A stretch of DNA of 64,000 nt. Origin: an uncultured virus (IMG/VR IMGVR_UViG_3300020037_010720). Its lineage: Duplodnaviria > Heunggongvirae > Uroviricota > Caudoviricetes. Every line of letters starts with the position of its first letter. Positions within the stretch are counted from its first letter, which is position 1. The position numbers and the translations under genes are program-made. The stretch lies in IMG/VR virus record IMGVR_UViG_3300020037_010720; one strand, given 5' to 3'. The notes beneath the pieces were generated by a model. It did no database searches. It was not told where the DNA came from and saw nothing but the letters and a program-made list of their open reading frames with translations. This document shows, one piece after another, positions 1,730 through 33,598 of the stretch.

Positions 1730-2332
1730 TTGCCCGCAGCTCTCCCGCCCCCTGCGTTCCTGGCCCGCCTCACCGCGACCCGCCGTGCCGAGCGCGATGC
1801 CCGGCACGCCCGCGCTGACAAGCTCGGCTACATGGGCCTCGCCCGTGAGCTGGCCACGAAGTGCGGCGAGACCCTCAACAACCTCGCCGCGTTGCAGCCT
1901 CGGGCCCGAACGCTGTACCAGACCCGGCCCGAGTACCGCGACGACCTGCGGGCCCGCTGGCGCCGGCACTACCGCGAGGCCTTCGCGCGCTGGCTCGGGC
2001 CCGCGAAGGCCCTGGCGCTGGAGGCCGCGCTCGTCCGCGGCGAGCGCGTGGCCATCGTCAGCGCCAGCCCGGCGCCCAAGAGCGTCGGTGCGTTGATGGA
2101 CCAGGCCCAACTCGACGACCTCGGTCCGAGCCTCGCCGAGCGGCCCCGGAGGCGCGTCGTGGTCCACGACGACATCCTCCGATCCGAGGACAACACGCCC
2201 GAGTACCGCGCCAAGGTCGCGGCCTGGTTCGAAGTGGCGAGATCGCGGGAATTTGCCCGTAGAAGTCGAACCACAGCCCAAGATCCGGGCCCGGATCCGA
2301 CTCCTGGATCCGGGCCTAAAACGCCGTCCTGA
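1730..2332 (+). CDS. hypothetical protein
   Basis: GAGGAG RBS before a TTG start; 200 aa. Confidence 0.65.
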   Translation: MPAALPPPAFLARLTATRRAERDARHARADKLGYMGLARELATKCGETLNNLAALQPRARTLYQTRPEYRDDLRARWRRHYREAFARWLGPAKALALEAALVRGERVAIVSASPAPKSVGALMDQAQLDDLGPSLAERPRRRVVVHDDILRSEDNTPEYRAKVAAWFEVARSREFARRSRTTAQDPGPDPTPGSGPKTPS

Positions 2333-3200
2333 CCGAGATCGGTCCGGCCACGGCTCCAAGCCTGGCGCGATCACGCGCAAAACGCGGTCCGCTTCGAGTT
2401 TCTCGGGCCTATTCCCGCGATCCCGCAGTCGCGCCAGGCACGTGGTCCAGGTAGTCCTCGGCCTGGATCGGCGCGCTGTCTGGGGGCGGACCAGCGCGCG
2501 CGGCCTTGAGCTCGGCCGCGTGCTCCAGCGCCACGGCTCGCCCTGGTGCCAGGATCGCCACGAGCTGGACCGCCTCCTCGTCCGGCACCTGCAGCCCGAG
2601 CTGGTGCCAGACCTCGATCTGCGCCTGCGTCGTCTCCGGCATCGACAGCCACGGCGTGCGCGCGTTCGCCATCTCCTCGGCCAGGATCCCGAACATCCGG
2701 GGCCGCGCCTCGGGCGGGATGTCGGCGAGCTCCATCTTGAGCCAGTCCTCGAGCCGCAGGCCCTTCGCGCCCGCCGCGATGCCCTTGTCGAGATCGTACT
2801 GGCGCCGGCGCTCCAGGACCTCTGCAGCTCGGATCCGGTCCCGGTTGTCCGACCGGTCCGACGCGCAGATCCGGCGCGTCACGCTCATGTGGTCGAAGTC
2901 GACCCCCGGATCCTCGGGCAACGCTGGCAGCTGGACCGGCGCCGGCGGCTCGGGCGGCTCTTCGCCTGCCTCCTGCGCGTCCAGGGCCCGATCCTTGCCG
3001 AGCTTCGTCGCCATCTCGCCCTTGCGGTACTGCTGGATCAGCCGCTCGACGTGGCGCGGCTTCACGCCGAGGATCGCCGCCAGCTCTGGCGCCGAGTGCA
3101 CGCCGCGCACCTCCCACAGCTCGATGAACTGCGCTCTGCGGGTTGCTGCCTCGCGCTCTCGTGCGGATCTCACCGAGGATCCGACCCTACCGGATCCGGT
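2241..3200. repeat. GATC island 1 (21 GATC) with palindromes
   Basis: Hand count of 21 GATC in about 960 bp versus 3 in bases 1-2240; palindrome GATCCGGGCCCGGATC at 2282-2297; inverted repeat GATCGCGGGAAT/ATTCCCGCGATC at 2241 and 2411; ACCGGATCCGGT at 3189-3200. Confidence 0.85.
2409..3173 (-). CDS. N-terminal HTH protein, possible terminase small subunit
   Basis: HTH-like SAPELAAILGVKPRHVERLI; upstream GGTAGGGTC motif shared with tail genes; TerS role is an inference. Confidence 0.55.
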   Translation of the reverse strand: MRSAREREAATRRAQFIELWEVRGVHSAPELAAILGVKPRHVERLIQQYRKGEMATKLGKDRALDAQEAGEEPPEPPAPVQLPALPEDPGVDFDHMSVTRRICASDRSDNRDRIRAAEVLERRRQYDLDKGIAAGAKGLRLEDWLKMELADIPPEARPRMFGILAEEMANARTPWLSMPETTQAQIEVWHQLGLQVPDEEAVQLVAILAPGRAVALEHAAELKAARAGPPPDSAPIQAEDYLDHVPGATAGSRE

Positions 3201-3292
3201 TGGGGGGCGCGAGCCGCGGGCCGACGTCGGACGCGCTGAGCTTTATCGCGCACGCCCGACGCCCACCCGTTTGGACGGTCAGTCGCACGGCC

Positions 3293-4714
3293 TCAGTCCC
3301 CGTTCCACTTGGCCGCCGCGGGTGGGGCCGGCTCATCGAGAGAGCGCGCGGCCGGGAGCTCGACCTCGCTCGGCCCGGGAACGCTGGTGTCGAGCGTGCG
3401 GGCGACCTCGGCGACGTCGTCGGCCAGTTCCTCGGCAAAGTCGGGTTCGGCGACCAACTCGAGCTGGACCGCGGGCGCCGGGGGGCCGATCGGGTGGAAG
3501 TGCGCGACGATGGTGTGGACCCCGATGCGGACAACGGAGCCTGGCCAGATCGGCGCCATGGACAGCACGGCGGCGCCGTCGACCTCAAGCGCCCAGCGGA
3601 TGTCGATGCGGTTGATGACGATGCCCCCATCGCTGGGGCGCCGGGCGAGTTCGGCGACGGCGATCGGAGTGTTCCACGAGGGCTCCGCGAGCCACGCCGC
3701 GTCACGCTCCGCGAACCACACCCCTTCCGCGCCTGCAATGACCAGCAGGCTGCGCCCGTGGAACAGGTCAGCCGCGGTGGCCTTCGGCGGTCCCGCGTCA
3801 CTGGCCCCGACGAGCGTGACGCGGTGCGAGTCGCGGTGGTGGGTCGTCGGTTTGGGCACCCAGTTGCGGGACCCGTAGCTCTCGCGGGCGCGCGCGACCC
3901 GGCGGTGGAGCTCGCCGATCGCGGCGACGAACGAGTCGCCCGTCACGCCCTCGACACAGCCGGGCCCGCTGCCGATGTACTGCATCTCGTCGCTGCGCCG
4001 CATCGGAACCAGGATGCAGGCCGGCGAGAAGTCGACCCAGCGGTAGAGGCGGGCCAGCGGCCAGCGCGGCCACGTGATGCGGCGCTCCATGAGCCGAGCC
4101 CTCATCGGGAACGTGCCCTCGGGCATGGCGATCGTCACGTCGCGCTCGTCGATCGCCACGTCCGGGGCGTGCTTGGGCTTGCCCCACAGCGCCTCGGTCA
4201 GGCTGACCGACCACTCGCGGCTCTCGCCGGGCCGGTGCTCGTTGTCGTCGTTCCAGAGGTTCGCGCGGGCTCGCAGCTCGCGGCCCTCGACGGTCTCCGG
4301 GTCGTAGTAGTCGAGCGACATGCTGGTGCGCCGGCGCTGCCCTGAGCCGACGAGGCCGGTGACGATGGCTCGGAGCAGACCGAAGCGCTCCGCCGAGGTG
4401 TAGGAGCCGCGGAGCCCAAGGTACAGGGTCGCGGGCCCGAGGCTCACGTTGGCCTTGACCGGGTCCTCGGCGCCGTCCTCGAGCGTGACGCTCGCGCCGA
4501 ACGACAGGCCCAGGTTGCGCGCCATCGTGGCGCGAAGCTGCCGGCTCGCGCTCTGGTCGGACAGCGTGACCGTCACGGCCTGGTCGTCGTGGTTGAGGCG
4601 AACGCCGATGTCGCCGACGGGCGACGCGATGTCGATGTAGTCCGAGCCAGGGCTGTGAGAGCGAGATGCCTTGATCATGCCCGGCGAGACGGGCCCCACC
4701 GTGCGCACATTCAT
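3293..4714 (-). CDS. hypothetical protein, C-terminal region weakly FHA-like
   Basis: 473 aa ORF; LEVDG...PIWPGSVVRIG resembles the end of an FHA domain. Confidence 0.6.
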   Translation of the reverse strand: MNVRTVGPVSPGMIKASRSHSPGSDYIDIASPVGDIGVRLNHDDQAVTVTLSDQSASRQLRATMARNLGLSFGASVTLEDGAEDPVKANVSLGPATLYLGLRGSYTSAERFGLLRAIVTGLVGSGQRRRTSMSLDYYDPETVEGRELRARANLWNDDNEHRPGESREWSVSLTEALWGKPKHAPDVAIDERDVTIAMPEGTFPMRARLMERRITWPRWPLARLYRWVDFSPACILVPMRRSDEMQYIGSGPGCVEGVTGDSFVAAIGELHRRVARARESYGSRNWVPKPTTHHRDSHRVTLVGASDAGPPKATAADLFHGRSLLVIAGAEGVWFAERDAAWLAEPSWNTPIAVAELARRPSDGGIVINRIDIRWALEVDGAAVLSMAPIWPGSVVRIGVHTIVAHFHPIGPPAPAVQLELVAEPDFAEELADDVAEVARTLDTSVPGPSEVELPAARSLDEPAPPAAAKWNGD

Positions 4715-4980
4715 GGCCTATCGTATGCCTTCGCCACCTCGACAGCGAGCGCTTCGCCACGGGCTGTGAGTGACACGTGCGGGCCGACTTTTACGATGTC
4801 GATGCGCACGAAGAAGTCGACGGCACGCTGTGCATCCTCCCTCGAACCCCCGCAGATCAGGACAAGGTGACTGCGCGGCACAGGCCAGCCAGTGGCCTGC
4901 AGGACCCACAGCATGGTCTCCTCTACCTGTCTCAGGGCAATGATGGGCGCGACGAAGATCACCGCAGCCTCCCGATGCAC
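4711..4980 (-). CDS. hypothetical protein (wHTH-like)
   Basis: 89 aa; ATGA overlap with the next gene; ends with SLTARGEALA. Confidence 0.55.
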   Translation of the reverse strand: MHREAAVIFVAPIIALRQVEETMLWVLQATGWPVPRSHLVLICGGSREDAQRAVDFFVRIDIVKVGPHVSLTARGEALAVEVAKAYDRP

Positions 4981-5321
4981 TTGGTGCCCGGCGGCACGGG
5001 TCGCACCTGCCTGGCCTCGATCAGGTACTGCGCGTAGAGCATGCCCGCCGACGTGACCTCCTTCGGGTCCCAGTAGTTCTCGCCGTCGCCGAGGACCAGC
5101 ACGACGCCCTTGAACCGGACGCTCAGGCCGCCATTTTTGAGGGCTCGCGTCTCGGAGAGCTCGCGCAGCGACCCGCCCTCATCGAGGATGCGCTCGACGA
5201 GCTGGTAGCGCGGGATGTTGTCGTCGCCGAGGGGCACGATCTCGCGGAGTCGGCGCTGCGCCGGCGTGGCCCGCTGCTTGGACAGCGAGGCAAGGAAGGC
5301 GTCGAGACGGTCGGTCTTCAC
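4959..5321 (-). CDS. hypothetical protein
   Basis: GTGA overlap with the upstream stop; GC3 bias. Confidence 0.6.
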   Translation of the reverse strand: MKTDRLDAFLASLSKQRATPAQRRLREIVPLGDDNIPRYQLVERILDEGGSLRELSETRALKNGGLSVRFKGVVLVLGDGENYWDPKEVTSAGMLYAQYLIEARQVRPVPPGTKCIGRLR

Positions 5322-6442
5322 GACTGCACCTGTCCCTTCGGACCTGTCGGTAAGACCACGTCGATGCGGTTCGTCGGCGCCCACCCCATGGCGCGCTTCG
5401 GCCACAGCGTCGAGCACCAGCGCGCCCAGCGGTCGAGCGGGATCCATCGGTTCGGGGTCGCGTCGTAGATCATGACCCGCGCTTCCGCTGGGCTTCCGTC
5501 GCGGGCGTCAACCGCATCGAGATGGCTGGCCGGCTTGTCGACCCGGACGCCGAGCCAATGCGTGAAACGATAGGCCACTCGCGGGTCGAGGTCGCACCAC
5601 GGCCCGAGCCACTGGATGCGCACGAGCCCCAGCACCGGCCACGGGTCGTGCGCCGCGTTGCGCAGGTGGGTCCACCGCGCGGCCAAGCCTCGTATCCGGG
5701 CCAGATCGAGCGCGTCGACCATGTTCGTCGGCGACATGAAGCCCCGAAACGGGTGCACCAACTCGCGCGCCGCCTCCACCGTCGGCAGCCCGAGAACCGC
5801 GGCGAGCGACATGGGCCCGCAGTTCGCGCCCCATGCGTCGCCGGCCTCGATCGTGTCGGGCAGGACCGCGGGCACCTGGGCCATGTGGCAGTACATGACC
5901 AGCTCGGAGGTCAGGATGTCCTCGCGGGTGGGACGGCTGGCCTCGGCCGGATCTGCGGCGTCGGGGAAGAGAGGGCGTTGGGCTGGCGGCTTCACGGGGC
6001 GCACGCGTTCGTCCGGGCACTCGAGCGTGCCGAAGCGCTCGGACCAGACCGCGTGCATGGCGTCGCCATGGAGACTGGAGAGGTACTCGGCCTCGGACCA
6101 GACATCCGCATGCGCGAGCCGCACTTCCACGGTCGCGCCGACCTCATACTTGAGCACCGGGGCGGGTCGCGTGGCCGCGAGCTCCGCCTCGCGGGCCTGC
6201 CCAAGCCGGGCTCGCTCGACCGACAGCGCCGTGGTCGCCGCGTCACTGCTCGCCAGCGCGAGCAGCTCGGCCTCAAGGTTCTCCCGCGCTGCGGCCAGAT
6301 TCGGACCGCTCGCGCTGAGCAGACCGAGGCGTAGCGTCGTCGACCACTTGTGCCGGTACGAGTCGGACTCGTCGCGCTCGCCGACGACCTCGATGCGCAG
6401 GGTCGCGGAGACCTTGCGCCTTGGCGGGGACGTGCGGGTCAC
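5318..6442 (-). CDS. protein with C-terminal papain-fold (C39-like) peptidase domain
   Basis: NCGPMSLAAVL...THWLGV...IYDA gives Cys-His-Asp order. Confidence 0.6.
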   Translation of the reverse strand: MTRTSPPRRKVSATLRIEVVGERDESDSYRHKWSTTLRLGLLSASGPNLAAARENLEAELLALASSDAATTALSVERARLGQAREAELAATRPAPVLKYEVGATVEVRLAHADVWSEAEYLSSLHGDAMHAVWSERFGTLECPDERVRPVKPPAQRPLFPDAADPAEASRPTREDILTSELVMYCHMAQVPAVLPDTIEAGDAWGANCGPMSLAAVLGLPTVEAARELVHPFRGFMSPTNMVDALDLARIRGLAARWTHLRNAAHDPWPVLGLVRIQWLGPWCDLDPRVAYRFTHWLGVRVDKPASHLDAVDARDGSPAEARVMIYDATPNRWIPLDRWARWCSTLWPKRAMGWAPTNRIDVVLPTGPKGQVQS

Positions 6443-6615
6443 GTCTGCGCCGCCTTGGCGGCGATCACCGCCTGCGCCTTGGCGTGGTCGAAGCGCTCGA
6501 CCGCCTCCTTTGCGGCGTCATCGGCAGCCTCGTGAGCAGCCCAAGCTCCGTCGATGACGACGATATGCGCGAAGACCTGCGCCCAAACGTCCTGGTACAG
6601 CTTCTCGATGTCCAT
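6439..6615 (-). CDS. hypothetical protein (58 aa)
   Basis: MDIEKLYQ...; stop overlaps the next GTG. Confidence 0.6.
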   Translation of the reverse strand: MDIEKLYQDVWAQVFAHIVVIDGAWAAHEAADDAAKEAVERFDHAKAQAVIAAKAAQT

Positions 6616-6652
6616 GGCGGTCAGACGCCGCCATGGCGCGCGGTGTTCACGG

Positions 6653-6961
6653 TCAGAACGGCACCCCGTCCTCGGCCATGAGCTGGCGGCTGGCACGGCG
6701 GCGCTGCCCAGCGAGCACCGCGTCGGCGCGCCGGACCTTGGGGTGGCGCCTGCCGCCCTCGAAGCGCCTCCAGTCCCGGAGCCGTACGCCCGCGGCGAGC
6801 ACCCCGGCGACGATCTGGTCGTCGCTGGCGACCGCGAGGCAGCCGGGCCAGCCGAGGTCGGCGGCGAGCTGGCGGACGACCTGCTTGCGCCGGCGCCACC
6901 GGCCGCGCGGATGGACGTGGCGCCTGGCCTCAACACCCTGGAGTTTGGTGGCGCTGCTCAT
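6653..6961 (-). CDS. hypothetical Arg-rich protein
   Basis: ATGA coupling with the upstream gene. Confidence 0.5.
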   Translation of the reverse strand: MSSATKLQGVEARRHVHPRGRWRRRKQVVRQLAADLGWPGCLAVASDDQIVAGVLAAGVRLRDWRRFEGGRRHPKVRRADAVLAGQRRRASRQLMAEDGVPF

Positions 6962-7775: not shown

Positions 7776-7809
7776 GCCCGCGAGCAGACGCCGCGGGCGC
7801 GCCGCGGAT

Positions 7810-10800
7810 TCACGCGGACAGCCTCTCCTCGCGCTCGACCCAGATCATGCCGCTCGACAGGCGCAGCCCGCCGCTCGCGCTGGCCAGCAGCGTGTCGTAG
7901 CACTCGCGGGCGATCGCGTAGGCCGCAGGTGGTGGCACCGCGTTGCCGATGCGCTTGCGCTGCCCGGTCTGCGGCGTGCCGTCCGGCAGGTCGTCGCCGC
8001 AGCTCGCGGGCCCGCAGAACTCGAACCAGTTGGGGAAGCCCTGGATGCGCGCGAGCTCGCGGGTCGTGAGCGGGCGATGCAGCGTGCCGTCGTAGCTGCG
8101 GATCACCATGCCGGGCACGGGCCGCTTGCGGGTGAAGTCCCTCGGCGGCCCGTAGAGCACGAACCGCCCGTCGTCGAGCCGCACGAGCTCGTGCGTCGGG
8201 ATCGGCCAGCCCCGCTCGTCGTAGCGGATGCCGTAGTCCTTGGGTGGCTTCGCCTTGCGGGCGCGCCGCTTGCCCAGCCGCGGGTCATCCACGGCGCCAG
8301 GGGCTTGCCGCGCGCTGTGCTCGCCCCGCACGACCGAGGACGGCTCCGCCGCGTCCTGGACCCCGTACGAGTCGTTCCGGGGCTTGTGACCGAGGCGCGG
8401 GTCGACCACGGAGCCCGCGCTGTTGTCGTGCGAGTGCGACCCGACGACGGTGCCCGCGGGTTCCGCGTCGCTGTTGACGCCGTAGCTCGTCGCTCGCTGC
8501 GCGCAGGACAGGCGCGGGTCGACCACCGAGGCCCTGGCGTTTTGGACCCCAGCCTCGCCGACCACGGTGCCCCGCGGCTCGTCGCACGAGTCGACGCCGT
8601 AGCCGCCGGTCTGGCGGTTGTTGTTGTGGTCGCTGGTGCTCGTGCGCACCACGAGACGCGGGTCCGGGATGGCTGTCGGCGAGCACCACACCTGCGACTC
8701 GCCGCGGATCGTTGGGCCTGGTTGCTCCGGCTCGACGACACCATAGTTGCCGTTCCGGGGGGTCGATTCACTGCCCTGGCGTATCTGGACGTGGACACCG
8801 AGCCGCGGGTCCACGAGCGACGCACGCGTGTTCTGCAAGGTCTGCATGCCCCGGATGGTGGCGCTCGGCTGGCGGTCGTCGGCGACGCCGTAGTGGTGCG
8901 GGCGGTCCTTGAACTTGCCCGTGGTCGACCACGCGACCCGCGGATCCGCGACCGCGGCCCAGGTCTGGCACACCCGCGAGTTGCCGATCACGGTCCGCGC
9001 CGGCGCCTCCCACGACAGGACCCCGAGCTTGCCGGTCTGGCGGCCCTTGGTCTCGACCCACCGGATGCCGGTCACCGCCTCGAGCTCGTGCGACTCGCAG
9101 TGGTACAGGAGCACCTCGGGCGGCAGGTTGCGCCAGTCGCCGCCGGCGGGGATGCACGCGAGCCGGAGCTTGTTGAGGTCGGAGAGGTCGGGAAGCCGAT
9201 GCATGCCCTTGGTGTCGGGGCGTGGCGGCGGCAGCTCGCACAGCACCTCGCGCAGCGCCAGCGGCTTGTTCTTCCTCGGCTTGCGGAGGTAGTCCGGCAC
9301 GGTCTCCATGTGCCGGGCCACGAGCAGGAACCGCGGCCTCTTCTCGGCGAGGCCCTCGGCCAGCTCCCCGCAGCAGTGCGAGGACATGTGCACGCTGTAG
9401 CCCTCGCGCTGCAGCAGCGCGACGATCTTGTCCAGGAACACCTTGCCGCGGCTCGTGATGCGCGGGACGTTCTCGAAGACGATCAGGCCCGGCTGCTTGC
9501 GCCGCGAGGCCGGCGAATGCTTCCAGGCCTCCACCATCAGCTCGATGCCGCGGAGCGTGAGCGCGTTGAAGGCCTGGTACTTCTCGGTCGCGGCTTTCTC
9601 CTCGGACATGCACCCCGAGAGGCCCACGCAATTATGCGTGGCGATGAGCGGCGAGCAAAAGGTGTGGTCGTCGTTGACCTCGAGGTTCCAGACCGGCTCG
9701 ATGGTGTCGCGCTGGTACACCTTCTTAACGCGGAGCCACACCATCCCGTCCTCGAACTTGCAACACGTCCACTTGGGCTTGTTGATGAACGCAAGGGTGT
9801 AGCTGTCCGAGATGTTGACCTCGCGCCCCTCGATCAACATGCGCCCAGCGCGAGCCAGCCGTGAAATGCAGCCGAACCTACCGGTGCGCAGCATGACCCG
9901 CTGGACGCTGCGCAGCAGCGGGAGCGACACGGAGCCGATGGCCCACCCGTAGTCGGGGTTCCCGTACTTCGCGCGCGCGTTCCCATCGGTGACGCGCAAG
10001 CCGTGGATCAGCGCATCGAGAAATTCGGCTTCGAGGCCCATCAGTGCCTCGGGGATGCACTTCATGTGGCTGCTCGTCCCAAATGGCCCACAGAGCTGCC
10101 ACAGGTGCCGCACGGCGCATCCGATGCGGACGTTGCGATCGTCGTCACCCTGAACGTGGTAGCTCAGGCCCAGCGTCTCCAAGCACTCCACGGCGGTGCG
10201 ATACGCGACCCCGCCCCGCGGCCCCACGCTGAATCTCACCGTGTAGCCGCCCTTGTTTCGGCGGTCACCGTCGCCGATGTACATCCCCAGCAACCGCCAC
10301 AAGGCGGGGCTGCGCGCGAAGCCCCGGAGGTCGCCCAAGCGTGAAGACACGCACGAGGCACCCTTGAACACGCCACCGCGGTGAAGGATGGTTGGGTCGC
10401 CGAACTGGCCGACGAACGCCTCCGCTGTCCCGGGTACCTCCTTGGGTACGGGGAATCCGACGCGATCGTTGACCTCGACGTCGCGCGCCGGCGTCCACTG
10501 CGGAGCCCGCAGGGTGCGCACCTTGTCAGTCCCGCGGCGGACCTTCCTGATCCAGATCGGGTGCTCGTCCGTGTACCACTGGATGTCCGTGTCGATGGTG
10601 CCGTTGAGGCGAAGGCCATGCATCCGGCCCTGATAGGGGCGGACGTTCACCTTGTCGACCGTGCACAGGCGGCCGGTGTGAGTCAAAACCAGCTGCCCAG
10701 GCATGACGCTGTCGATGCGGCGCGGCCCATCCTCCATCATGACGATGCCGTCTGCGGGGAGGCACGGGCTCGATGTCGCGGCGACATCTGGGCACTCGGG

Positions 10801-11019
10801 GAACAGCTCAAGCAACTCCGCGACCGTCACCTTGGCGAGATCGAGTCGGTGCGCGGGCTCGCCGGTGAGGCGCTGGTAGTCGTCGCAGGCGCGCGGGTCG
10901 TAGTCGATGCCGGCGCCGCGAAAGCCGGCCTGCTTGAAGCCGTAGGCCATGCCGCCGGAGCCGCAGAAGAAGCTCAGGACGAAGGGGTCGAATGTGGTAG
11001 GGGAGAATGGTGCGCTCAT
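7810..11019 (-). CDS. DNA (cytosine-5) methyltransferase containing an intein
   Basis: Motif I FFCGSGG, motif IV SPC, motif VI FENV, motif VIII RPRF, motifs IX-X RELARIQGFP...IGNAVPP. Confidence 0.95.
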   Translation of the reverse strand: MSAPFSPTTFDPFVLSFFCGSGGMAYGFKQAGFRGAGIDYDPRACDDYQRLTGEPAHRLDLAKVTVAELLELFPECPDVAATSSPCLPADGIVMMEDGPRRIDSVMPGQLVLTHTGRLCTVDKVNVRPYQGRMHGLRLNGTIDTDIQWYTDEHPIWIRKVRRGTDKVRTLRAPQWTPARDVEVNDRVGFPVPKEVPGTAEAFVGQFGDPTILHRGGVFKGASCVSSRLGDLRGFARSPALWRLLGMYIGDGDRRNKGGYTVRFSVGPRGGVAYRTAVECLETLGLSYHVQGDDDRNVRIGCAVRHLWQLCGPFGTSSHMKCIPEALMGLEAEFLDALIHGLRVTDGNARAKYGNPDYGWAIGSVSLPLLRSVQRVMLRTGRFGCISRLARAGRMLIEGREVNISDSYTLAFINKPKWTCCKFEDGMVWLRVKKVYQRDTIEPVWNLEVNDDHTFCSPLIATHNCVGLSGCMSEEKAATEKYQAFNALTLRGIELMVEAWKHSPASRRKQPGLIVFENVPRITSRGKVFLDKIVALLQREGYSVHMSSHCCGELAEGLAEKRPRFLLVARHMETVPDYLRKPRKNKPLALREVLCELPPPRPDTKGMHRLPDLSDLNKLRLACIPAGGDWRNLPPEVLLYHCESHELEAVTGIRWVETKGRQTGKLGVLSWEAPARTVIGNSRVCQTWAAVADPRVAWSTTGKFKDRPHHYGVADDRQPSATIRGMQTLQNTRASLVDPRLGVHVQIRQGSESTPRNGNYGVVEPEQPGPTIRGESQVWCSPTAIPDPRLVVRTSTSDHNNNRQTGGYGVDSCDEPRGTVVGEAGVQNARASVVDPRLSCAQRATSYGVNSDAEPAGTVVGSHSHDNSAGSVVDPRLGHKPRNDSYGVQDAAEPSSVVRGEHSARQAPGAVDDPRLGKRRARKAKPPKDYGIRYDERGWPIPTHELVRLDDGRFVLYGPPRDFTRKRPVPGMVIRSYDGTLHRPLTTRELARIQGFPNWFEFCGPASCGDDLPDGTPQTGQRKRIGNAVPPPAAYAIARECYDTLLASASGGLRLSSGMIWVEREERLSA
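8270..9035 (-). repeat. six ~38-50 aa repeats (YGV...P..T..G...DPRL) in the MTase variable region
   Basis: Six DPR[LV] units visible in the translation. Confidence 0.85.
9631..10764 (-). mobile_element. intein with LAGLIDADG homing endonuclease (378 aa)
   Basis: Starts CLPADG; ends VWNLEV...THN followed by Cys; LLGMYIGDG and LIHGLRVTDG motifs. Confidence 0.93.
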
Positions 11020-11387
11020 GGCTCGATGTCTCGATAGTAGTCGTCGGCGGCGATGCCCCGCTCGCGCTCGGTGCCGCGGAGGTAGTCGCGGTAGATCTGC
11101 GCCGCTTCTACCGGGTCGTGTGGGGCTGCGCAGGTGCGGCACAGGTCCTCAACAACCTGGCCCTTGCCGGGGCGCCCGCTCGCGGTTCGCCACGGCCGCA
11201 GCAGCTCCGTGAAGTCCGCGACCTGCTTGGCCAGCTTGAGCACGGCTTCCCGCTTGGCCTCGTGCATCGGCCCGCGGCGGGGCAAGGTGACCTCGACACG
11301 AGGCCCGAGCGCGCCGCAGTCATCGCACTGCATCTGCACCCACTCGTCGCCGAAGGGGCGCTTCGAGCTCACGGTCCGGTAGCTCAT
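11016..11387 (-). CDS. hypothetical zinc-finger protein
   Basis: CDDC...CRTC; ATGA coupling at both ends. Confidence 0.7.
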   Translation of the reverse strand: MSYRTVSSKRPFGDEWVQMQCDDCGALGPRVEVTLPRRGPMHEAKREAVLKLAKQVADFTELLRPWRTASGRPGKGQVVEDLCRTCAAPHDPVEAAQIYRDYLRGTERERGIAADDYYRDIEP

Positions 11388-12768: not shown

Positions 12769-13827
12769 TCACCGCCACAGCTTGAGCTGACCCGGGAAGT
12801 GGTCCTCGGCGTACCGGGCCGACCGCTCCACCGCCTCGGCAGCGAGCCGCTGCTGCTGCACCCACCGCCACTCCTCGGCCCATACCTGGCTGTTCTGGAG
12901 GTTGCCGACGCCTAGGTCGTGCGCCCGCATCCACTCGAAGCGGTCCACGAGGTCCAGGTCGATGCCCTCCCACCGCTCCCGCATCGCCGCGACCACGGCC
13001 GGCCAACGCGCCTTGAGGTTGAGCCCCAGCGCGAGCCGTAGCTCGTTCTCCATCCACCGGCCCCGGCTGCTCCAGGCCCCGCTGTCGACGCTGCGCAGGT
13101 TCAGGCACGACAACAGCGCCCCGTCGCTCTTGACCCCGTAGCCGTGCAGGTTCACATCCCGCAGGCGCCGCACGATGCCCGTGATGATGCGCTCCAGCTC
13201 GCGGGTGCCAGACCGCCGGCAGACCGACCCGAGCCCCACCAGCGGCAGCGTCGACAGGTCCACGCCGGCCCTGAGGTACTTGTCGTTGCAACGCAGGTAG
13301 TCGTCCTCGGTGTGCCCCTGCAGCGCCGGCAGCAGCGGCAACTCGGGCGCCAGGTCGCGCAGCTCGATGTAGCTGCGCACGGTCCGGTCCTGGTGCTCTT
13401 CGACGCTCAGGCCCGTCTTGCGCACCATCTCGGGCTCGCACATCCAGTCCTGCGTAGCGACGTACTGCACGGTCCCGAGGGCGGCGCAGATGCGGCGCGC
13501 GGCCGCGACGTGCTCCTTCGCGGATCGAATCCATAGCCCGTTGTCCCGGATCATCGAGAACGCGCCCGAGTCGAGCAGCACCGGCACGGTCGCCTCCCGG
13601 AGCCGATTGCGCCCGGTCGACTCGCGATCGAGCACGCGACCGAGCTCCAGCAGGAGCGGGCCGCCGGCCTTGCCCTCCCAGGCCCAGTACGGCTCGGGAG
13701 CGACCACCCACAGCCAGGGCAGCGGGTTCGCGTCCTGGAGCTGGCCCCACGCGTCGCGGTACCAGAGCAGCGCCAGCGCGATGAGGTCTTGGTCCGTGAG
13801 CTGCGGGATGACGATGCGGCGGGTCAT
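12769..13827 (-). CDS. DpdA/TGT-like 7-deazaguanine DNA-modification transglycosylase
   Basis: LDSGAF, QDWMCEP, PALQG, GLGSVCRR, LHGYGVK and SVDSGAWS, the TGT-fold motifs of phage DpdA-like proteins. Confidence 0.8.
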   Translation of the reverse strand: MTRRIVIPQLTDQDLIALALLWYRDAWGQLQDANPLPWLWVVAPEPYWAWEGKAGGPLLLELGRVLDRESTGRNRLREATVPVLLDSGAFSMIRDNGLWIRSAKEHVAAARRICAALGTVQYVATQDWMCEPEMVRKTGLSVEEHQDRTVRSYIELRDLAPELPLLPALQGHTEDDYLRCNDKYLRAGVDLSTLPLVGLGSVCRRSGTRELERIITGIVRRLRDVNLHGYGVKSDGALLSCLNLRSVDSGAWSSRGRWMENELRLALGLNLKARWPAVVAAMRERWEGIDLDLVDRFEWMRAHDLGVGNLQNSQVWAEEWRWVQQQRLAAEAVERSARYAEDHFPGQLKLWR

Positions 13828-23486: not shown

Positions 23487-23608
23487 GGTGTGTTGTCCTG
23501 CGGGGTCTCCGCTGAGGGTCTGTCTATTCACGCCGGGGTCTCCGGCGGCTCCATGCTCTTTTAGTCGCTGCTCGGGCCGCACCGATCGGTGGCCCGGTCG
23601 AATTATTT

Positions 23609-24537: not shown

Positions 24538-24566
24538 AGCCTATCTCCGTTCTATATGCTTGTCAA
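24538..24566 (-). promoter_or_regulatory. sigma70-type promoter, near-leaderless
   Basis: TTGACA-N17-TAGGCT-N8-ATG. Confidence 0.7.
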
Positions 24567-25702: not shown

Positions 25703-25708
25703 ACAAGC

Positions 25709-25852: not shown

Positions 25853-26656
25853 TCAGTTAGCGGCCGGCCTCCTCATCACCACGATCACCGTAGCGACGTC
25901 GGTGTGCTCAAACGTGCCGGGCTCCACGTCCTTGATGTCAGCGTCGTACTGCGCGAGCAACTCGCGGAAAGCCTTGGCCGCCTTGGTTGGCGCTGTCCTC
26001 CAGCCAGGCCACATGACAGACACGAGCACACCGCCCGGGCGGACGAACTGCCAGGCGTGCGTCACGTGCTTGATGTCGGCGCCGCCAGTAAATGGCGGGT
26101 TCATGACCACTGCATCGAACATCGGCCCTGGGCCCACGGTCAGGAAGTCTTGGACCTGGATCACATAGCGGTTGCCATCGCGCGGTGCGATGCAAACATC
26201 CAGATGCCCGGCGGCCTTCTCGGCGGCCACGTGGTCGATGTCGTAGGCGGTCACCTGGATCTGCGGGCACTTGCGGGCGAGCGCGACGATGAGTGCGCCC
26301 TCGCCGATGCTCGGCTCCAGAACCTTCGCGTTTACAAGCAAGGGTCCGACCTGATCGACCACCTGCTCGGCGAGGCTCGGCGGCGTGTAGAACGACTGGA
26401 GCTTGGTCCGCAGATTGACGGCCTTGCCCGTCTCGACGGCCATCCCGAGCGCCTCCCGCGGGTCACGCTCGAAGACGTGCGCCTTGCTGCGTTTGTCCCA
26501 TTTTCCACCGGCGCCATCGAGCGCCTTGTTCACCTCGAGGTAGAGCTTGCGCTCGAGTTGGCCCGGCGGGAGGGTCACCGAGGTCGCAGTGATGGTCGAG
26601 CGCGCGAGCACGTCGCGCACCTCATCGGAGATCTTGAAGGTCGATCGAGCTGCCAT
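25853..26656 (-). CDS. DNA amino-(N6-adenine) methyltransferase
   Basis: FYTP, VLEPSIGEG and MNPPF motifs. Confidence 0.85.
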   Translation of the reverse strand: MAARSTFKISDEVRDVLARSTITATSVTLPPGQLERKLYLEVNKALDGAGGKWDKRSKAHVFERDPREALGMAVETGKAVNLRTKLQSFYTPPSLAEQVVDQVGPLLVNAKVLEPSIGEGALIVALARKCPQIQVTAYDIDHVAAEKAAGHLDVCIAPRDGNRYVIQVQDFLTVGPGPMFDAVVMNPPFTGGADIKHVTHAWQFVRPGGVLVSVMWPGWRTAPTKAAKAFRELLAQYDADIKDVEPGTFEHTDVATVIVVMRRPAAN

Positions 26657-27088: not shown

Positions 27089-27098
27089 CACCGCTGGG

Positions 27099-27584: not shown

Positions 27585-27619
27585 ACTGCTCTGACGCCCG
27601 CCTCGGCCTCGGATTCACC

Positions 27620-29410
27620 TTGATGAACAGCACGCCGGCGCAGCGCGTCTGCGCCATCGTGATCATCGGACCTGTCACTGGCTTCATCCCGCGCCCGTAC
27701 CAAGAGCACGCCATCAACGGCGGCGACCCGCGCAAGGGGCCCGGCATCATGCCCTGCTTCGCGCGCCACAAGAACGTGCTCGCCGTGCTGTTCACGGGCG
27801 GCGGCAAGACCGAGATCTTCCTCTCGCTCGTGCGCCGATACCTGGAGAGCCCCAAGACGCCGCCACACAAGCGCGCGCTGATCCTCGCTCATCGCGACGA
27901 GCTCGTGTCGCAGCCTATCAGCCGAGGTCCGCGGTTCGGCCTGCGGCTCGCCCGCGAGCAAGGCGACTCGTCTGCCGTGGGTGCGCCCGAGCGCGTCATC
28001 GCATCGACGGTCCAGACGATGCGGCTGCGCAAGGAGAAGTACGACCCCGACGAGATCGGCCTCATCATCTGCGATGAGTCGCATCACTCGGTCTCGGACG
28101 AGTTCCGCGACGTGCTCGACTACTTCCCGAGCGCGTTTATCCTCGGCGTCACTGCGACGCCGCAGCGCCTCGATGGTGTCGGCCTGGGCGAGCTCTACGA
28201 GGCGGTCGCATTTCGCTACCCCATCGAGCAGGGTGTCGAGGATGGCTGGCTCGTGCCGATTCGACCCTGGCGCGAGGTCATCGACGGTCTCGACCTCTCC
28301 AAGCTCAGGTCCAGGGCCGGCGACCTCGAGCCCGGCGCGCTCGGCGAGCTCATGTCCGAGTACGCCCACCCCGTGGCGAAGATGCTGGTCGAGCGCGCCG
28401 GTGACCGACCCACCATCGCGTTCTGCGCGACGCTGGCGCACGCCTACGCGCAGGCCGAGGCCCTGCGCCGCTACACCTCGGCCCGTGTCGAGGTCGTCGA
28501 CGGGACCACGAAAAAGCGGGGCAAGCGGGCCGACGCGGTGGGCATCTTCCGCGAGGACCTCGTCGAAGACTTCCGTCTCGGCCGTCTCCAATTTCTCGTC
28601 AACGTCGGCGTGGCGATCGAGGGCTTCGACGCGCCAAACTGCCGCTGCGTCGCCCTCATCCGCCCCACCAAGTCGCCCGCGCTGGTCATCCAAGCCGTGG
28701 GCCGTGGCACCAGGCCCTTGCCCGGCATCGTCGACCAGCCCGAGCTGCGCGACGACCCGGACGGTCGACGCGCAGCGATCGCCGCGAGCGCAAAACCCGA
28801 CCTCCTCGTGCTCGACTTCTCAGGCGCCAGCGAGAAGCACTCGCTGGCCGGGGTCGTCGATGCGCTGGCCGGCAACCTGACCCCAGAAGAGCGCCTAGCG
28901 CTCGTCAATATCCCGCTGTGCGGCGACCTGACCGTCGATCAGGCGCTCCAGCAGGCCCGCATCGCGGCGGCGCAGGAAGCCACCCGCCATGCCGCCGAAC
29001 TCGCCGAGCTCGCCACCCACAGCTACGAAGTCGACCCGTTCCACCCGGTCTGCGTGTTCGGGATCAAGGGCCTGCGCGACGACCCGAACGAAGAGCGGGC
29101 GTCGGCCAAGATGGCCAAGTACCTCGAGCGCAACGGGGTGCAGAACGCGGCGGCCCTCTCCAAGAGCACGGCGAAGAAGCTCCAGGGGACGATCATCGTG
29201 CGCGACCGGCTTCACCTCGCCAGCCTCACCCAGGCGACTGACCTGCAGCGTGCTGGCGTGCCGGTCACGTCGACCGTTCGCATGTCCTACACGCACGCGA
29301 ACGACCTGTGCGTCGAGCTGCTGCGCAACCGGGGCGTGCGCCCGAAGCGGTGGGACTCGGTGCCGCACCTTGGCGGGCAGGAGGTCCATGCGCCGGCTCC
29401 CCGTCGTTGA
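27620..29410 (+). CDS. superfamily II (DExH) helicase
   Basis: TGGGKT, DESHH, TATP, EGFDAP and QAVGRGTR motifs. Confidence 0.92.
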   Translation: MMNSTPAQRVCAIVIIGPVTGFIPRPYQEHAINGGDPRKGPGIMPCFARHKNVLAVLFTGGGKTEIFLSLVRRYLESPKTPPHKRALILAHRDELVSQPISRGPRFGLRLAREQGDSSAVGAPERVIASTVQTMRLRKEKYDPDEIGLIICDESHHSVSDEFRDVLDYFPSAFILGVTATPQRLDGVGLGELYEAVAFRYPIEQGVEDGWLVPIRPWREVIDGLDLSKLRSRAGDLEPGALGELMSEYAHPVAKMLVERAGDRPTIAFCATLAHAYAQAEALRRYTSARVEVVDGTTKKRGKRADAVGIFREDLVEDFRLGRLQFLVNVGVAIEGFDAPNCRCVALIRPTKSPALVIQAVGRGTRPLPGIVDQPELRDDPDGRRAAIAASAKPDLLVLDFSGASEKHSLAGVVDALAGNLTPEERLALVNIPLCGDLTVDQALQQARIAAAQEATRHAAELAELATHSYEVDPFHPVCVFGIKGLRDDPNEERASAKMAKYLERNGVQNAAALSKSTAKKLQGTIIVRDRLHLASLTQATDLQRAGVPVTSTVRMSYTHANDLCVELLRNRGVRPKRWDSVPHLGGQEVHAPAPRR

Positions 29411-29936
29411 CGCCTCGGCGTGCCAGCCCTGCGGCGGCGCGTGCTGCAAGGCCTCGCCGGGCCTGACCGCGCCCGAGGACTGGCCCGACCTCGGCGCGCT
29501 CGAGGCGGGGCTCCTTCGCGGGACCTGGGCCCTGCGCATCTGGTACGGCGACCCGTGGTCCAAGCTCTTCGCGCGCCGGGTCCAGCGCGGCCACGCCCCG
29601 GTGGCCGAGGTCGACCGGGTCCTGATCCCGCTGCCGCGCGGCGCGGGCCCGATGGTGCACGACGGCCACAAGCCCGGCGCCTGCGTTCTGCTCACGGACC
29701 GGGGCTGCTCGCTCCCCTACAAGCACCGGCCGACGCAGTGCCGCGAGTTGGAGCCGCGGCACGAAGACGACGGGTGCCAGCTCAGCCGGCCGTTCAAGGA
29801 CAAGGACATGGCCGCGCTGTGGCGGCCCTACACGCGCGAGCTCGAGGCGATGCTGGCCCGCGTCGAGGCCCTGTACCGCCAGCTCTACGAGCCGCCGTCA
29901 GTCGTCGGGCGCCTGCCGCTTCGCGCCGGGCAGTGA
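29388..29936 (+). CDS. YkgJ/CxxCxxCC cysteine-cluster protein
   Basis: CQPCGGACC...CVLL...GCSL...RPTQCR. Confidence 0.75.
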   Translation: MRRLPVVDASACQPCGGACCKASPGLTAPEDWPDLGALEAGLLRGTWALRIWYGDPWSKLFARRVQRGHAPVAEVDRVLIPLPRGAGPMVHDGHKPGACVLLTDRGCSLPYKHRPTQCRELEPRHEDDGCQLSRPFKDKDMAALWRPYTRELEAMLARVEALYRQLYEPPSVVGRLPLRAGQ

Positions 29937-31379
29937 CTTCTGCGTCGGCTTGTAGCGGGGCTTGGGCACCGTCCCGGGCCGCGCCGCTGACATCGTGGCG
30001 AGCACGTCGTCGAGCGACCCGTCGACCTCGTTGTTCCACGCCCGGAACTTGTAGAGCGCCCCGTCGAACTTGAGCATGACCATGCCGATCGGCCCGGCCC
30101 GGTTCTTCTCGATCATCGCCGCCACGCTCCCGCGCCACGGCCGGCCCGCCGCCGCGTCCTCGGTTCGGCCCAGCGGGTGCAGCAGCATGACGTGAAACGC
30201 GTTCTCCTCGATGTCGCCGCCGCCCTTGAGGTCGTCCATCTCGGGATTGCGGCCCTCTTTCACGTGCCCGCGCGTGAGCTGCGAGAGCACGATGAGCGCC
30301 AGACCTGTCCTTTTGGCCACGTCGGCGATCACTGCCATGCAGTGCATCACGTGGTCCTGCAGGCTCTTGATGCCGGGGCTCCGCTTGATGCGGGTCAGGT
30401 AGTCGATCACGACATACCCGATCGTCTTGCCCTTGCGGAACTTGCGGCGGTGCCAGCGGTAGATCTCGGCGGCGATCTGCTCGACGGTCCGCGGGGTCTC
30501 GTCGTCGATGTCGAGCGGAGCCGCGTCGATCCGGTCGGCCGCTTCGAGCAGGCGCTTGAGCACCGCGTGGCTCGGGATCGGCCCGTGCATCATCGTCTCG
30601 TAGTCGACCTGAGCCATGGCACACATGACCCGCGTGACCAGCTCGTCGTCGTCCATCTCCAGCGAGAAGAACAGACAGGGCGGCGCGGGCGCGCACGTTG
30701 GGTCGTGGCGCTCGGCCTGGTCCGCGACCATCGACGTGACGAAGGCCGTCTTGCCCGTGCCCGGGCGGGCGCCGATGACCACCACCTTGCCGAGCCGCCA
30801 ACCGCTCGTCTTGGTGTCGAGACCGGTGATGTTGCTCGAGATCCCGATGACCTTGCGCGCGCGCGCGGCCGGGTCGCGGATCCGCTTGAACACGTCGGTC
30901 AGGATCTCGTGCGTGGATCTCTTGGCCTTCGCGCGGTCGTGATCCATCGCCACGCCAAACGCCCTGTCCCGGAGGACAGCCAGCGCGGCCTGCGGGTCCT
31001 CGCTCCCGCGAAGCTCGGCAGCGGCCTCGGCGAGCATGCGGTCGGCCTCGCGCGCGCGAGCTGCCGCGACGATCCTCTCCGCGTCGCCGCGCGCGTCGGC
31101 CTCGCTGGGCACCGGCACCCCCGGCACCCGGCCGAGCAGGCCGCGACACGCCTCCTCCATCTTCATCGCGCGCAGCTTCTCGATCATCACCGCGCCGCGC
31201 GGCGTCTCACCAGCGTCTCGAAGCTCCGCGGTGACGCGCCAGATCGCCGCGAGCGGCGGCTGGGTGATGTGCTCGGCCAGCAGGCCCGCTGACACCGCGG
31301 CGTCGTAGACCTCGGTGTCTTTCACCGCGGCGAGCGTCAGCGCCAGCTCGCGCTCGGGGTAGGAGAGCTTGGCCGGCAT
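29898..31379 (-). CDS. dnaB: replicative DNA helicase, DnaB-like
   Basis: GARPGTGKT, FSLEM, IDYL, LSQLTR and EKNRAGP motifs. Confidence 0.92.
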   Translation of the reverse strand: MPAKLSYPERELALTLAAVKDTEVYDAAVSAGLLAEHITQPPLAAIWRVTAELRDAGETPRGAVMIEKLRAMKMEEACRGLLGRVPGVPVPSEADARGDAERIVAAARAREADRMLAEAAAELRGSEDPQAALAVLRDRAFGVAMDHDRAKAKRSTHEILTDVFKRIRDPAARARKVIGISSNITGLDTKTSGWRLGKVVVIGARPGTGKTAFVTSMVADQAERHDPTCAPAPPCLFFSLEMDDDELVTRVMCAMAQVDYETMMHGPIPSHAVLKRLLEAADRIDAAPLDIDDETPRTVEQIAAEIYRWHRRKFRKGKTIGYVVIDYLTRIKRSPGIKSLQDHVMHCMAVIADVAKRTGLALIVLSQLTRGHVKEGRNPEMDDLKGGGDIEENAFHVMLLHPLGRTEDAAAGRPWRGSVAAMIEKNRAGPIGMVMLKFDGALYKFRAWNNEVDGSLDDVLATMSAARPGTVPKPRYKPTQKSLPGAKRQAPDD

Positions 31380-32305
31380 CACGCACCCCCTGTGCGGGAG
31401 CCGTGCCGCGCGAGCCAGTCGTCGAGCACGCCGATGTCCGCGGGCGGCTCGGGGTCGATCGGAGCGGGACTGTCGGGCTCGCAGATCTGGCGCCCGCCGA
31501 CGAAGGTGCCGCCCGGACCGCGCACGATCGCGGTGTCGGGCATGGGCGCGGGCGCTTCGCCGAGCGCGTCGTCGAAGCGCGTCCGGGTCGCGCAGATCCA
31601 GGAGAGCCGCAGGTACTTCTCCGCCGTGTCCTGGCCCTGCCACACGCGCGAGCGCCGGCACTTCTCGGCGCGCCCGTGCAGCGCGCGAACAATGTCGTCG
31701 AGCTCGACCCCATGCGCCATGATCCTCGCCATCTCGAGCCGGTCCTTGATCGAGGGCTGGTCGCCGAGGTCGGTCACGCCGTGGAAGCCGGACCTGAGCT
31801 CGCGCTCGAGTCGCTTGAGCATGACGATGCTGGCGTTGAAATCGTCGCCGCGGGGCCGCGGCTTCGCTCGCACCGCTTGCTTTGCGCCGGGCTTGAGGAA
31901 CGGCTCGACGGCCTGTTCGAACGCGACCCGCGTGCTCCCGCTCATCGCCTGCTTCGTGCGCTTGGCCAGCTCGGCCATCCAGCTCGCGCCCGTTGCCACG
32001 ACTCGGCGCCCGTGGCCCCGCGCAGGCATCGGCGCGGTCGGGAGGTTGGCCAGCGCCACCTCCCAGACCACGGCGAGCTTGGAGTTCGAGTCGACGGCGA
32101 TGCCATCCGCGACCGCCAGCTCCTCCTCGATCTGCGAAGCCGACCACGCGTAGCGGCTGTGGGGCTCGAAGGCCGCCGCGCTGGCGAGGAAGACGCCAGG
32201 CGGTAGGTCCGGGGGCCGGCGCAGCAGCGCGTGAACGAGCGCTGCCTCAGCCGCGACCGACAGGCGCGAGATCGTCTTTGTCCAAAACCGCTCGGGAAAT
32301 TTCAC
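31379..32305 (-). CDS. putative replication initiator
   Basis: Directly upstream of dnaB; N-terminal FW...LS...LL...PGVF pattern of phage initiators (inference). Confidence 0.55.
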   Translation of the reverse strand: MKFPERFWTKTISRLSVAAEAALVHALLRRPPDLPPGVFLASAAAFEPHSRYAWSASQIEEELAVADGIAVDSNSKLAVVWEVALANLPTAPMPARGHGRRVVATGASWMAELAKRTKQAMSGSTRVAFEQAVEPFLKPGAKQAVRAKPRPRGDDFNASIVMLKRLERELRSGFHGVTDLGDQPSIKDRLEMARIMAHGVELDDIVRALHGRAEKCRRSRVWQGQDTAEKYLRLSWICATRTRFDDALGEAPAPMPDTAIVRGPGGTFVGGRQICEPDSPAPIDPEPPADIGVLDDWLARHGSRTGGA

Positions 32306-32319
32306 GATCCATGAGACGC

Positions 32320-32460
32320 GCGAAGGCTGATTTGATTCGCGCTTTGAAACCCGAATGAAACCATCCGGCCATTGATATTATTGGTCTATTCGTCTCGCTA
32401 GACCGATCCACCATCGTTAGACGGTCTCTCTCGACCGATCAACCATGCACGGATCGACGG
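32320..32460. promoter_or_regulatory. AT-rich divergent intergenic region with a direct repeat (possible origin/operator)
   Basis: ATTGATATTATTGG; GTCTC-N4-GACCGATC-N-ACCAT twice with a 32-bp period. Confidence 0.55.
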
Positions 32461-32635
32461 TACGACAGCCGTTGACGCCCGCCGCCCCCATCGGTAGCGT
32501 CATCGTCCGAACCAAAAGCGAACGGCGAGAGGGGTCTGAACCCTCCCGCCGCTCTGGCACCCGGATCGCACCACACGCGAAACGAGCACGTTCTGCACCC
32601 AGACGTAACACCCAGCCCACATCTTCACCAGCCCC

Positions 32636-33598
32636 CACCGGATCCGGTGCCGCTCGTGCTGGAGCGGCGAGCATGGTGGGACCGGGTCGCCGCGCGGGCG
32701 TACCGGTCCGGGTGGAAGGACGCCCAGTCGATCGCGGCGCGGTGCCTGCACGAGCACCTGGAAGCGGCCGAGCGCGCGCTCCCGCCGCAGATCCGGGCCC
32801 GCCGGACCGCGATCCTGGCCCTGCGCGCGCTGGCTCGGCAGCTGCGCCAGGGCGCGACCTTCGACGCAGCCGGCGATCCGGTCCAGCTGCTCGGCGACCT
32901 CGGGATCCGCGTGTCGGCCAAGACCGCGCGCGCGGCTGTGAGACTGCTCTCGACATGCGGGGTGATCGTCCGGCTCGGTCGCGGGCACTTCCCCTCGAGG
33001 ATCCGGCTCCGGCGCGCGTTTTTCGCCGCCGTCGCAGCTGCCGAGGCCTCGCCAATCACGCCCCAGATCTTCGAGGCTGGCTCGTTGCTGCTGGGCGACC
33101 CAGTGCAATTGTCGCTTGCGCTGGCGAATCAGCATCGAAACTGCGACGACCCGAGGGACAGTTCGAACGTCCTGCTCGTCGCACCCGATCCTGCGACCGG
33201 CGCGGGCGTGGCCGGGTCCTGCTCCCCGATCCGCTGGCCCGCCGGACCCCTGCCCGAGCGCCCACAGGCAATTGAATTAACGACAGTGCATGTGTTCTTC
33301 CGGGATCTGCCGGCTCGGCCCCGGATCCAGCAGGCGGCAGCGCTCGTGTTCGCCCATGGGTCGCGCGTGGATCCTGGGCTTCGCGGGCGCCCCCTCGCCC
33401 GGGCCCTGCTCGACGCGGCTGGGCAGCCGTCGAGCTACCGCGAGGTCGACGCGATCCACCGCGCGATCCAGGCGATGATCGCCAAGGGCTGGCTCCGCGC
33501 CGGGCCTGGATGGGCTCTTGAGGTCGCTGCGGATCGCCACCCGGATCTCGTGATCCTGGGCATCGAGGCCCAGCCGAGCGCGGAGCCGAGCACGGATC
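32636..33598. repeat. GATC island 2 (21 GATC)
   Basis: Hand count; starts at palindrome CACCGGATCCGGTG; the next GATC after 33595 is at about 34046. Confidence 0.85.

Follow-up and report, generated by a model that had tools for sequence, protein, structure and literature searches.

Background

In bacteriophage P1, the packaging site pac lies in the gene pacA and has a core of 161 bp (PMC10028697), and in SPP1 the pac site spans the promoter and start of terS, the gene for the small terminase subunit (TerS) (PMC4737164). Origins of replication may also be rich in methylation sites, such as GATC in the iterons of Vibrio ori2 and GANTC in repABC origins (PMC6090056). In the present study, we analyzed a 64,000-nucleotide stretch of DNA (the window) from an uncultured virus of the Caudoviricetes (IMG/VR record IMGVR_UViG_3300020037_010720), in which GATC sites are crowded into two islands: island 1, at a putative terS gene, and island 2, 30 kb away, next to replication genes.

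Phage P1 oriR and Escherichia coli oriC are further origins rich in methylation sites, and the maturation signals of T7-type terminal repeats are a comparison system for end formation linked to the large terminase subunit (TerL). An interpretation made earlier from the letters of the window (the sequence-only reading) took the two islands as a methylation-gated switch of replication and packaging, nucleated by a shared palindrome. We propose that the islands are arrays of one protein-binding word, GGATC(C), at two cis-acting sites, and give this reading as a whole about an even chance (roughly 0.5). A literature search, which largely left subscription journals outside, found no GGATC packaging site or origin, as judged from titles and the openings of abstracts.

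Results

The word enriched in the two islands

The two tracts singled out by the sequence-only reading (2241-3196 and 32641-33598) contain 21 GATC sites each, as it had counted, and the local backgrounds that it quoted are also correct (3 sites in 1-2240, 6 in 3200-4200, and the next one after 33600 at 34045). As a baseline, however, these backgrounds are low against the window mean of 6.25 GATC per kb (400 sites); outside the islands, windows of 960 bp have up to 15 plain GATC sites. When the codons of 68 genes were redrawn 1000 times with the amino-acid sequence fixed, the claimed enrichment persisted. The gene within island 1 (terS, see below) has 13 GATC sites versus 4.6 expected, and the gene within island 2, which encodes the protein P0002, has 21 versus 9.8; none of the 1000 shuffles reached either count. 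The third and last gene with this result is convergent with terS and overlaps island 1 (Table 1). Both islands are real and above chance.

The enriched word is GGATC/GATCC and not, as had been supposed, GATC. GGATC-type sites (GATC with a 5' G on one strand) number 37 in the 2272 bp of the islands and 115 in the 61728 bp outside, that is, 16 versus 1.9 per kb or about ninefold, whereas the remaining GATC sites do not exceed background (10 versus 238 in the same two portions). Among all 512 pairs of 5-mers, GGATC/GATCC is the top word of the two islands (log10 p -14), and the runner-up (log10 p -5.4) overlaps it. Outside the islands, plain GATC is at 1.04 of expectation in 65 genes, and the word itself is mildly avoided, with observed/expected values (200 permutations) of 0.81 for GGATC, 0.55 for GGATCC and 0.43 for CCGGATC (z about -2.7). 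Such local piling of a word together with its avoidance elsewhere would be the pattern of a binding signal, unlike that of selection for Dam sites alone. Four GGATC-type sites (0.6 expected) also occur in 32300-32636, ahead of the densest part of island 2.

Weaker GGATC clusters were observed in dnaB (30240-31200, 3 of 500 shuffles) and in the endolysin gene (45120-46000, 5 of 500); they are not significant over the 39 genes examined. Over the whole window, CTAG and CTTA/TAAG occur at about 0.2 of the Markov expectation.

The gene of island 1 and its product

The gene within island 1 encodes a protein of 254 residues, P0001, and there are strong grounds for regarding it as the small terminase subunit: its helix-turn-helix (HTH), the TerL gene downstream in relatives and a predicted TerS-TerL interface. 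The HTH had been proposed for the genes of both islands. For P0001 it stands, with a match to the Pfam family HTH_23 just below the cut-off (24.5 versus 24.6 bits, E 2e-5), whereas the product of the island-2 gene belongs to no family. The structure model of P0001 (pLDDT 79.8) has helices at residues 4-50 and a helical pair at 95-130, and a C-terminal motif is conserved in the family alignment; 30 homologues of P0001 were found. A fold search placed 2AO9 at the top of the PDB rows with an E value that is not significant (0.45), and a viral TerS row, likewise not significant, was obtained at E 0.05; 2AO9 is named as a small terminase in PMC4737164. P0001 has no PHROG, Pfam or PDB sequence match to TerS families, and one Atlas cluster for it carries Terminase_5 on 13% of its members.

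A metagenome scan yielded eight related terS loci (L003 to L010) with TerS proteins 40-58% identical to P0001. In five of the eight, a TerL gene (phrog_38) was found 1.7-5.5 kb downstream on the same strand; among the others, L007 and L009 break off too soon, and the truncated last open reading frame (ORF) of L004 matched nothing. We modelled the TerS-TerL pair of L003 and obtained a score of 0.62 versus 0.00 for the best control. Of 157 solved complexes, 116 reach this mark, as do 2 of 215 mismatched pairs. The runs share at least 50% of contacts (partner pLDDT 61-67), and the predicted interface consists of the conserved C-terminal TerS residues 235-252. The packaging role suggested by the sequence-only reading is thus supported by the probable identity of the gene and by the retention of the island in these relatives.

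Between terS and terL in L003 (10771-16271), L005, L006, L008 and L010 lie small genes on the opposite strand, a block that might be terminal or the first part to be injected. The TerS family is mosaic, in that the types of N-terminal HTH and of C-terminus are recombined in its members. In the TerL of L005 (6567-8573), about 140 residues are inserted, which show a weak match to Hint.

The DNA of island 1

The GGATC-type excess recurs in the 381 bp at the 3' end of terS in all eight related loci (p from 2e-2 to 2e-11), so island 1 is likely to be a pac-like site, or packaging-initiation region. The terS gene body is also enriched in L003, L004, L006 and L009 and is borderline in L005. Just past the terS stop codon, the window has a 190-bp dyad element with arms at 2237-2270 and 2393-2426, a candidate for the core of the packaging site that the sequence-only reading had not noted. 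An inverted repeat with the same 122-bp gap is present in the window, L004, L006 and L009 (0 of 60 shuffles each) and is not significant in L003, L008 and L010 by the same shuffle test. The invariant core of its distal arm, GGTTCGACTT, is found at the same place in five of the eight loci (L003, L004, L005, L006 and L009) and was not found in L007, L008 and L010. We also scanned for the dyad pattern elsewhere, and took the 13 viral loci obtained as chance, because they all lack a GGATC island as well as a homologue of the terminases of this lineage.

The other end of island 1 covers a promoter-like site of terS. Its hexamer TAGGGT is invariant in all six aligned sequences, and the hexamer 17 bp before it is TTGGCG, GTGACC or TCGCGC; a consensus scanner called no promoter there. 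In four of the six sequences, GATC sites flank TAGGGT. The 12-bp palindrome ACCGGATCCGGT, at which both tracts had been said to begin, is in the window found only at 3189, within this site, and at 32637. The two copies are identical as claimed, but island 2 starts earlier, with four more GATC sites at 32405-32564. Nor does the palindrome appear to nucleate the islands: it is absent from all eight related terS loci, so that the relatives share the GGATC excess and not the palindrome, and the chance of two islands sharing such a palindrome is up to about 0.06 (resampled from flanks that include the observed ones), which makes the sharing suggestive. Two other dyads described as GATC-centred and related are of a different kind. 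The one at 2282 is a 16-bp palindrome centred on GGCC, and that at 23580 is of the CGATCG type, one of 15 GATC-containing palindromes of at least 10 bp.

Compared with P1 pac, island 1 is similar in having a GATC-containing cluster in a small-terminase gene and in the size of its core (161 bp in P1, 190 bp here). However, the P1 word consists of TGATCA/G hexamers within about 161 bp, whereas here GGATC(C) extends over about 1 kb, with the conserved core 3' of terS; TGATCA is absent from both islands, and a 5' T occurs on 6 of 94 island half-sites. Unlike in P1, the terS and terL genes of the relatives are separated, their TerL has its best named matches among T7-type enzymes, and no Dam-family match was found in the window. 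Thus, as a likely pac-type site, island 1 is different from P1 pac in word and in size. The SPP1/SF6 pac shares with island 1 the repeats around the terS promoter and gene and a TerS with an N-terminal HTH; it differs in that island 1 uses one palindromic word in both orientations, has a 3' dyad, and is accompanied by a second array. The T7-type signals share the TerL family and a fixed-length element amid short repeats, but the TerL identity is only 22-25%, and the phage of the window is contractile-tailed, as indicated by a baseplate J match.

Island 2 and the replication region

Island 2 begins in the divergent region between a leftward operon (P0059-dnaB) and a rightward operon (P0002-recE-recT). 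Its beginning overlaps a control region (Table 1) with a GC content of 0.47-0.50 at 32300-32449 versus 0.69 overall, which is equally expected of a divergent promoter region. This region also has two 23-bp direct repeats that hold GATC (32392 and 32424), a TTGACG-17-TAGCGT site on the plus strand (32472-32500) and a hairpin (32520-32554). Like known origins rich in methylation sites, the locus over-represents one methylatable word and has an AT-rich patch and GATC direct repeats nearby; unlike them, it lacks regular iterons, its genes match no recognised initiator family, and its sites run irregularly through coding sequence. A replication role is plausible from the position and from this analogy, and we tentatively regard island 2 as an origin or origin-control region.

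On sequence grounds, P0002 is a real ORF; 13 of its 22 listed substitutions are at third codon positions. Its relatives comprise eight near copies and one protein of 37% identity (P0035), and no homologue was found in loci L001 to L010. Searches with P0002 gave no family or structure match (Atlas matches under 0.9), and the single-sequence model (pLDDT 39.7) is too poor for a fold search. Two winged-helix-like segments were read by eye in P0002 and set aside, as they had no support in these searches. A comparison of the P0002 and TerS profiles found them unrelated. P0059 showed no match to a relevant initiator family or structure. Scans of viral and genome contig collections with P0001, P0002, P0059 and family alignments recovered no DNA of relatives, nor was any obtained from a diverged relative for the region of island 2. 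In contigs of four runs over 29800-36300, the 13 substitutions listed for 33039-33528 all lie outside GATC, versus about one expected within it. A further protein, P0034, is the N-terminus of a UvrD-type helicase fused to the last 200 residues of P0002 (93% identity), either a recombinant or an assembly chimera.

Table 1. Positions of the islands, their elements and the genes discussed in the text
Feature	Position	Strand	Remarks
GGATC island 1	2181..3200		reaches from the 3' end of the convergent gene across the intergenic gap and terS into the DNA upstream of terS; 17 GGATC-type sites in 2059-3233 versus 2.2 expected
Gene convergent with terS	1730..2332	+	3' end inside island 1
Dyad element, 190 bp	2237..2426		inverted arms of 28-34 bp, 122 bp apart; GGATC sites at 12-13 bp spacing; two hairpins inside
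GGTTCGACTT, invariant core of distal arm	2263..2272	-	single exact copy in the window
P0001, putative small terminase subunit, 254 aa	2409..3173	-	HTH at the N-terminus, helical core, and a conserved C-terminal motif as the predicted TerL-binding part
Promoter-like site of terS	3184..3212	-	TAGGGT (3189-3184), 17-bp spacer, variable -35; read by eye
ACCGGATCCGGT, copy 1	3189..3200		within the spacer of the terS promoter-like site; not kept in relatives
GGATC island 2	32405..33598		densest at 32637-33598, with 17 GGATC-type sites in 962 bp versus 1.8 expected
Divergent control region	32300..32560		AT-rich patch, two 23-bp direct repeats, promoter-like site, hairpin
CACCGGATCCGGTG, palindrome (copy 2)	32636..32649		overlaps the start codon (GTG) of P0002
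P0002, 471 aa, no family	32647..34062	+	candidate initiator or regulator; poorly codon-adapted
P0059, conserved protein	31379..32305	-	immediately upstream of DnaB; without GGATC enrichment; candidate initiator or loader
DnaB-like replicative helicase	29898..31382	-	weak GGATC cluster
C5 cytosine methyltransferase with apparent intein	7810..11142	-	profile matches
DpdA, 7-deazaguanine DNA transglycosylase	12769..13827	-	PF23859, E 8e-50; candidate writer of a GA mark
NPPF amino-methyltransferase	25853..26620	-	no Dam-family match
NPPF amino-methyltransferase, weakly M.TaqI-like	39767..40633	+	no Dam-family match

Discussion

The explanation of these results that we favour is the following. Island 1 would be the packaging-initiation region, spanning the terS promoter, the terS gene and the inverted-repeat element past its stop codon; a protein would coat the GGATC array, and TerS rings would load there and recruit TerL through the C-terminal motif, after which TerL may cut in or near the dyad element. 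Island 2 would be a second array for the same reader, covering the gene that opens the rightward operon and adjoining the DnaB operon. The N-terminal domains of TerS differ between L004 and L006, and their downstream DNA is almost the same. The reader is probably a constant factor, of the host or the phage, rather than the TerS HTH alone, since this HTH is variable among the relatives in which the word is kept. The cut site, the origin, the reader and any role of a base modification in this scheme are our inferences.

Several observations weigh against this explanation. The eight terS loci represent five or six lineages, because two pairs, L004 with L005 and L007 with L008, match in the surroundings of terS. 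In L007, L008 and L010, the terS body is not enriched and both the dyad and its conserved core are absent, and L007 and L008 have, in addition, more of the other GATC sites 3' of terS (6 versus 1.5). The relatives have further GGATC clusters (0 of 500 shuffles each), at 177-441 and 7968-8055 of L003, in genes unrelated to P0002, and at 13414-13868 of L010, in terL; two islands may thus not be the general design, and several arrays are possible. Apart from that of L010, the second islands seen in the terL genes of relatives were set aside as mostly due to amino-acid content (185 of 500 shuffles in L005, 51 in L008 and 13 in L006).

As for packaging, the TerS-TerL pairing is a prediction for a relative, L003, and may pass through likeness to solved complexes, and no TerL, portal or capsid match was obtained among the 91 ORFs scanned in the window. 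The best named matches of the relatives' TerL are T7-type enzymes, which makes short terminal repeats a possible alternative to the ends of a headful pac mechanism; the data consist of contigs, in which no genome ends or cut site were seen. In SF6/SPP1, the repeats at a pac site need not be targets of TerS (PMC4737164). As for island 2, it has no regular iteron array beyond the two 23-bp repeats, its GATC spacing is irregular (8-121 bp), it lacks the dyad element of island 1, the residues of P0002 that bear GATC show no greater conservation than the rest (p 0.22 and 0.53), and P0002 has no known family.

The sequence-only reading held that methylation controls both islands. In this explanation, m6A or m4C on GGATC, placed by a host or phage enzyme, would gate packaging and replication as Dam does for P1. 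We regard it as unsupported and unlikely. It would account for the marking of both the terS locus and the replication-region locus by one word and for the GATC sites that flank the -10-like hexamer of terS in most of the aligned sequences. The two NPPF amino-methyltransferases and one C5 methyltransferase that had been reported are indeed encoded, by profile matches. Clusters of methylation sites are known at pac (PMC10028697) and at origins (PMC6090056), and m6A at GATC is common in sludge contigs (PMC12772301), in a paper whose excerpt does not mention GGATC. However, plain GATC is not enriched and the palindrome is not kept in relatives. Neither NPPF enzyme matches the Dam/D12 family in Pfam, PHROGs, NCBIfam or PDB, and no Dam-family match was found anywhere among the proteins of the window. 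In addition, the modification made by DpdA at GA can compete with adenine methylation (PMC10484667). As a separate observation, the apparent intein of the C5 methyltransferase has a weak LAGLIDADG match and is inserted at the catalytic Pro-Cys, as read by eye.

An alternative possibility, which we consider quite unlikely, is that the arrays are transcription operators. The regulator would be P0002, or the product of the gene that faces terS, and its GGATC targets would lie both at the gene that encodes it and at the terS promoter. Both palindromes are at gene starts, one of them in a promoter spacer, and the L003 clusters in other genes would suit such operators. The place of the convergent gene is taken by an XRE-HTH gene in L003 and by a PadR gene in L010. 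However, this gene changes among relatives and the word stays, and the best-conserved part of island 1 lies 3' of terS, not at the promoter, where L008 and L010 have no GATC. The unrelated profiles of P0002 and TerS also argue against it.

The mark read at the islands might instead be 7-deazaguanine, placed by the phage DpdA on the G of GA, which we consider very improbable. DpdA, which the sequence-only reading did not list, is present in the window, 38-43% identical to mycobacteriophage enzymes, and has a homologue in L010. The motifs reported for phage DpdA are GA and GGC (PMC10484667, PMC7544227), and GATC has GA on both strands. GA is, however, too general for an excess specific to GGATC, and the idea that DpdA targets GATC is not borne out by the reported motifs; a bacterial DpdA acts within CAGCTG (PMC10164549). 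Two unrelated loci with DpdA (L001 and L002) have no island, and neither que nor folE genes were found among the 91 ORFs scanned. The literature, in the excerpts used here, describes restriction protection by this modification and not regulation.

It is likewise very improbable, in our view, that the 190-bp dyad is an RNA structure, such as a terminator or 3' untranslated region between the convergent genes, in which GGATCC palindromes gather as parts of stems. The dyad folds strongly (z -6.55), and it has a three-way consensus fold in which both partners differ in 13 of the 74 pairs, although this is seen in only five related rows, two of them nearly identical. Both strands fold about equally well, and thus the element fits DNA as well as RNA. 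No Rfam match and, in 2000-3500, no terminator-like site was found, and an RNA structure would leave unexplained the sites in gene bodies and in island 2, whose windows fold with z from -2.2 to 0.7. Finally, an artefact of composition or a recent import of the DNA from a genome rich in GATC, which would suit the low codon adaptation and few relatives of P0002, has next to no probability, because the excess survives the codon shuffle, is confined to one flanking context and reaches intergenic DNA, and import is contradicted for island 1 by the recurrence of the excess at terS in relatives of 40-58% protein identity.

The sequencing runs that cover this DNA best are from wastewater and activated sludge. 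There is only a hint that the host belongs to the Myxococcota, as the sequence-only reading supposed. At 33930-33975 (plus strand, in a frame other than that of P0002), a fragment resembling the catalytic loop of Ser/Thr kinases (HRDIKPEN) was observed, on which many foreign contigs pile; it may resemble myxobacterial kinases. Elsewhere in the window, a DUF5131 gene and a gene with sigma-70 region 4 (55131-57488, plus strand) run against the direction of the tail operon, and a near-consensus promoter-like site (TTGACA-17-TAGGCT) lies at 24538-24566 on the minus strand. Strong folding (z from -4.3 to -6.3) was seen in the 200-bp windows at 10201, 34801, 43801 and 63601 (10 shuffles, 107 windows sampled).

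Conclusions

No close relative of this lineage was found among 50,697 deposited phage records, and the present analysis names a putative small terminase and a candidate packaging site for it. The signal is sharp and testable: a word of five bases, a dyad of 190 bp and the TerS-TerL interface predicted here. The way in which TerS recognizes pac is still under debate, and a varying HTH with a constant word offers a natural test between direct and assisted recognition. If the word is modified, the logic of P1 would extend beyond hosts that bear Dam. A decidedly unlikely form of this is that one GGATC-specific mark, made by a non-Dam methylase or by DpdA, is read by one protein and licenses both the origin (island 2) and packaging (island 1). 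If true, replication and packaging would be linked epigenetically in the manner of P1, by independent evolution in a lineage of uncultured sludge phages whose terminase genes are split and whose TerL is T7-related; and if the mark is 7-deazaguanine, it would be a regulatory rather than a protective use of that base.

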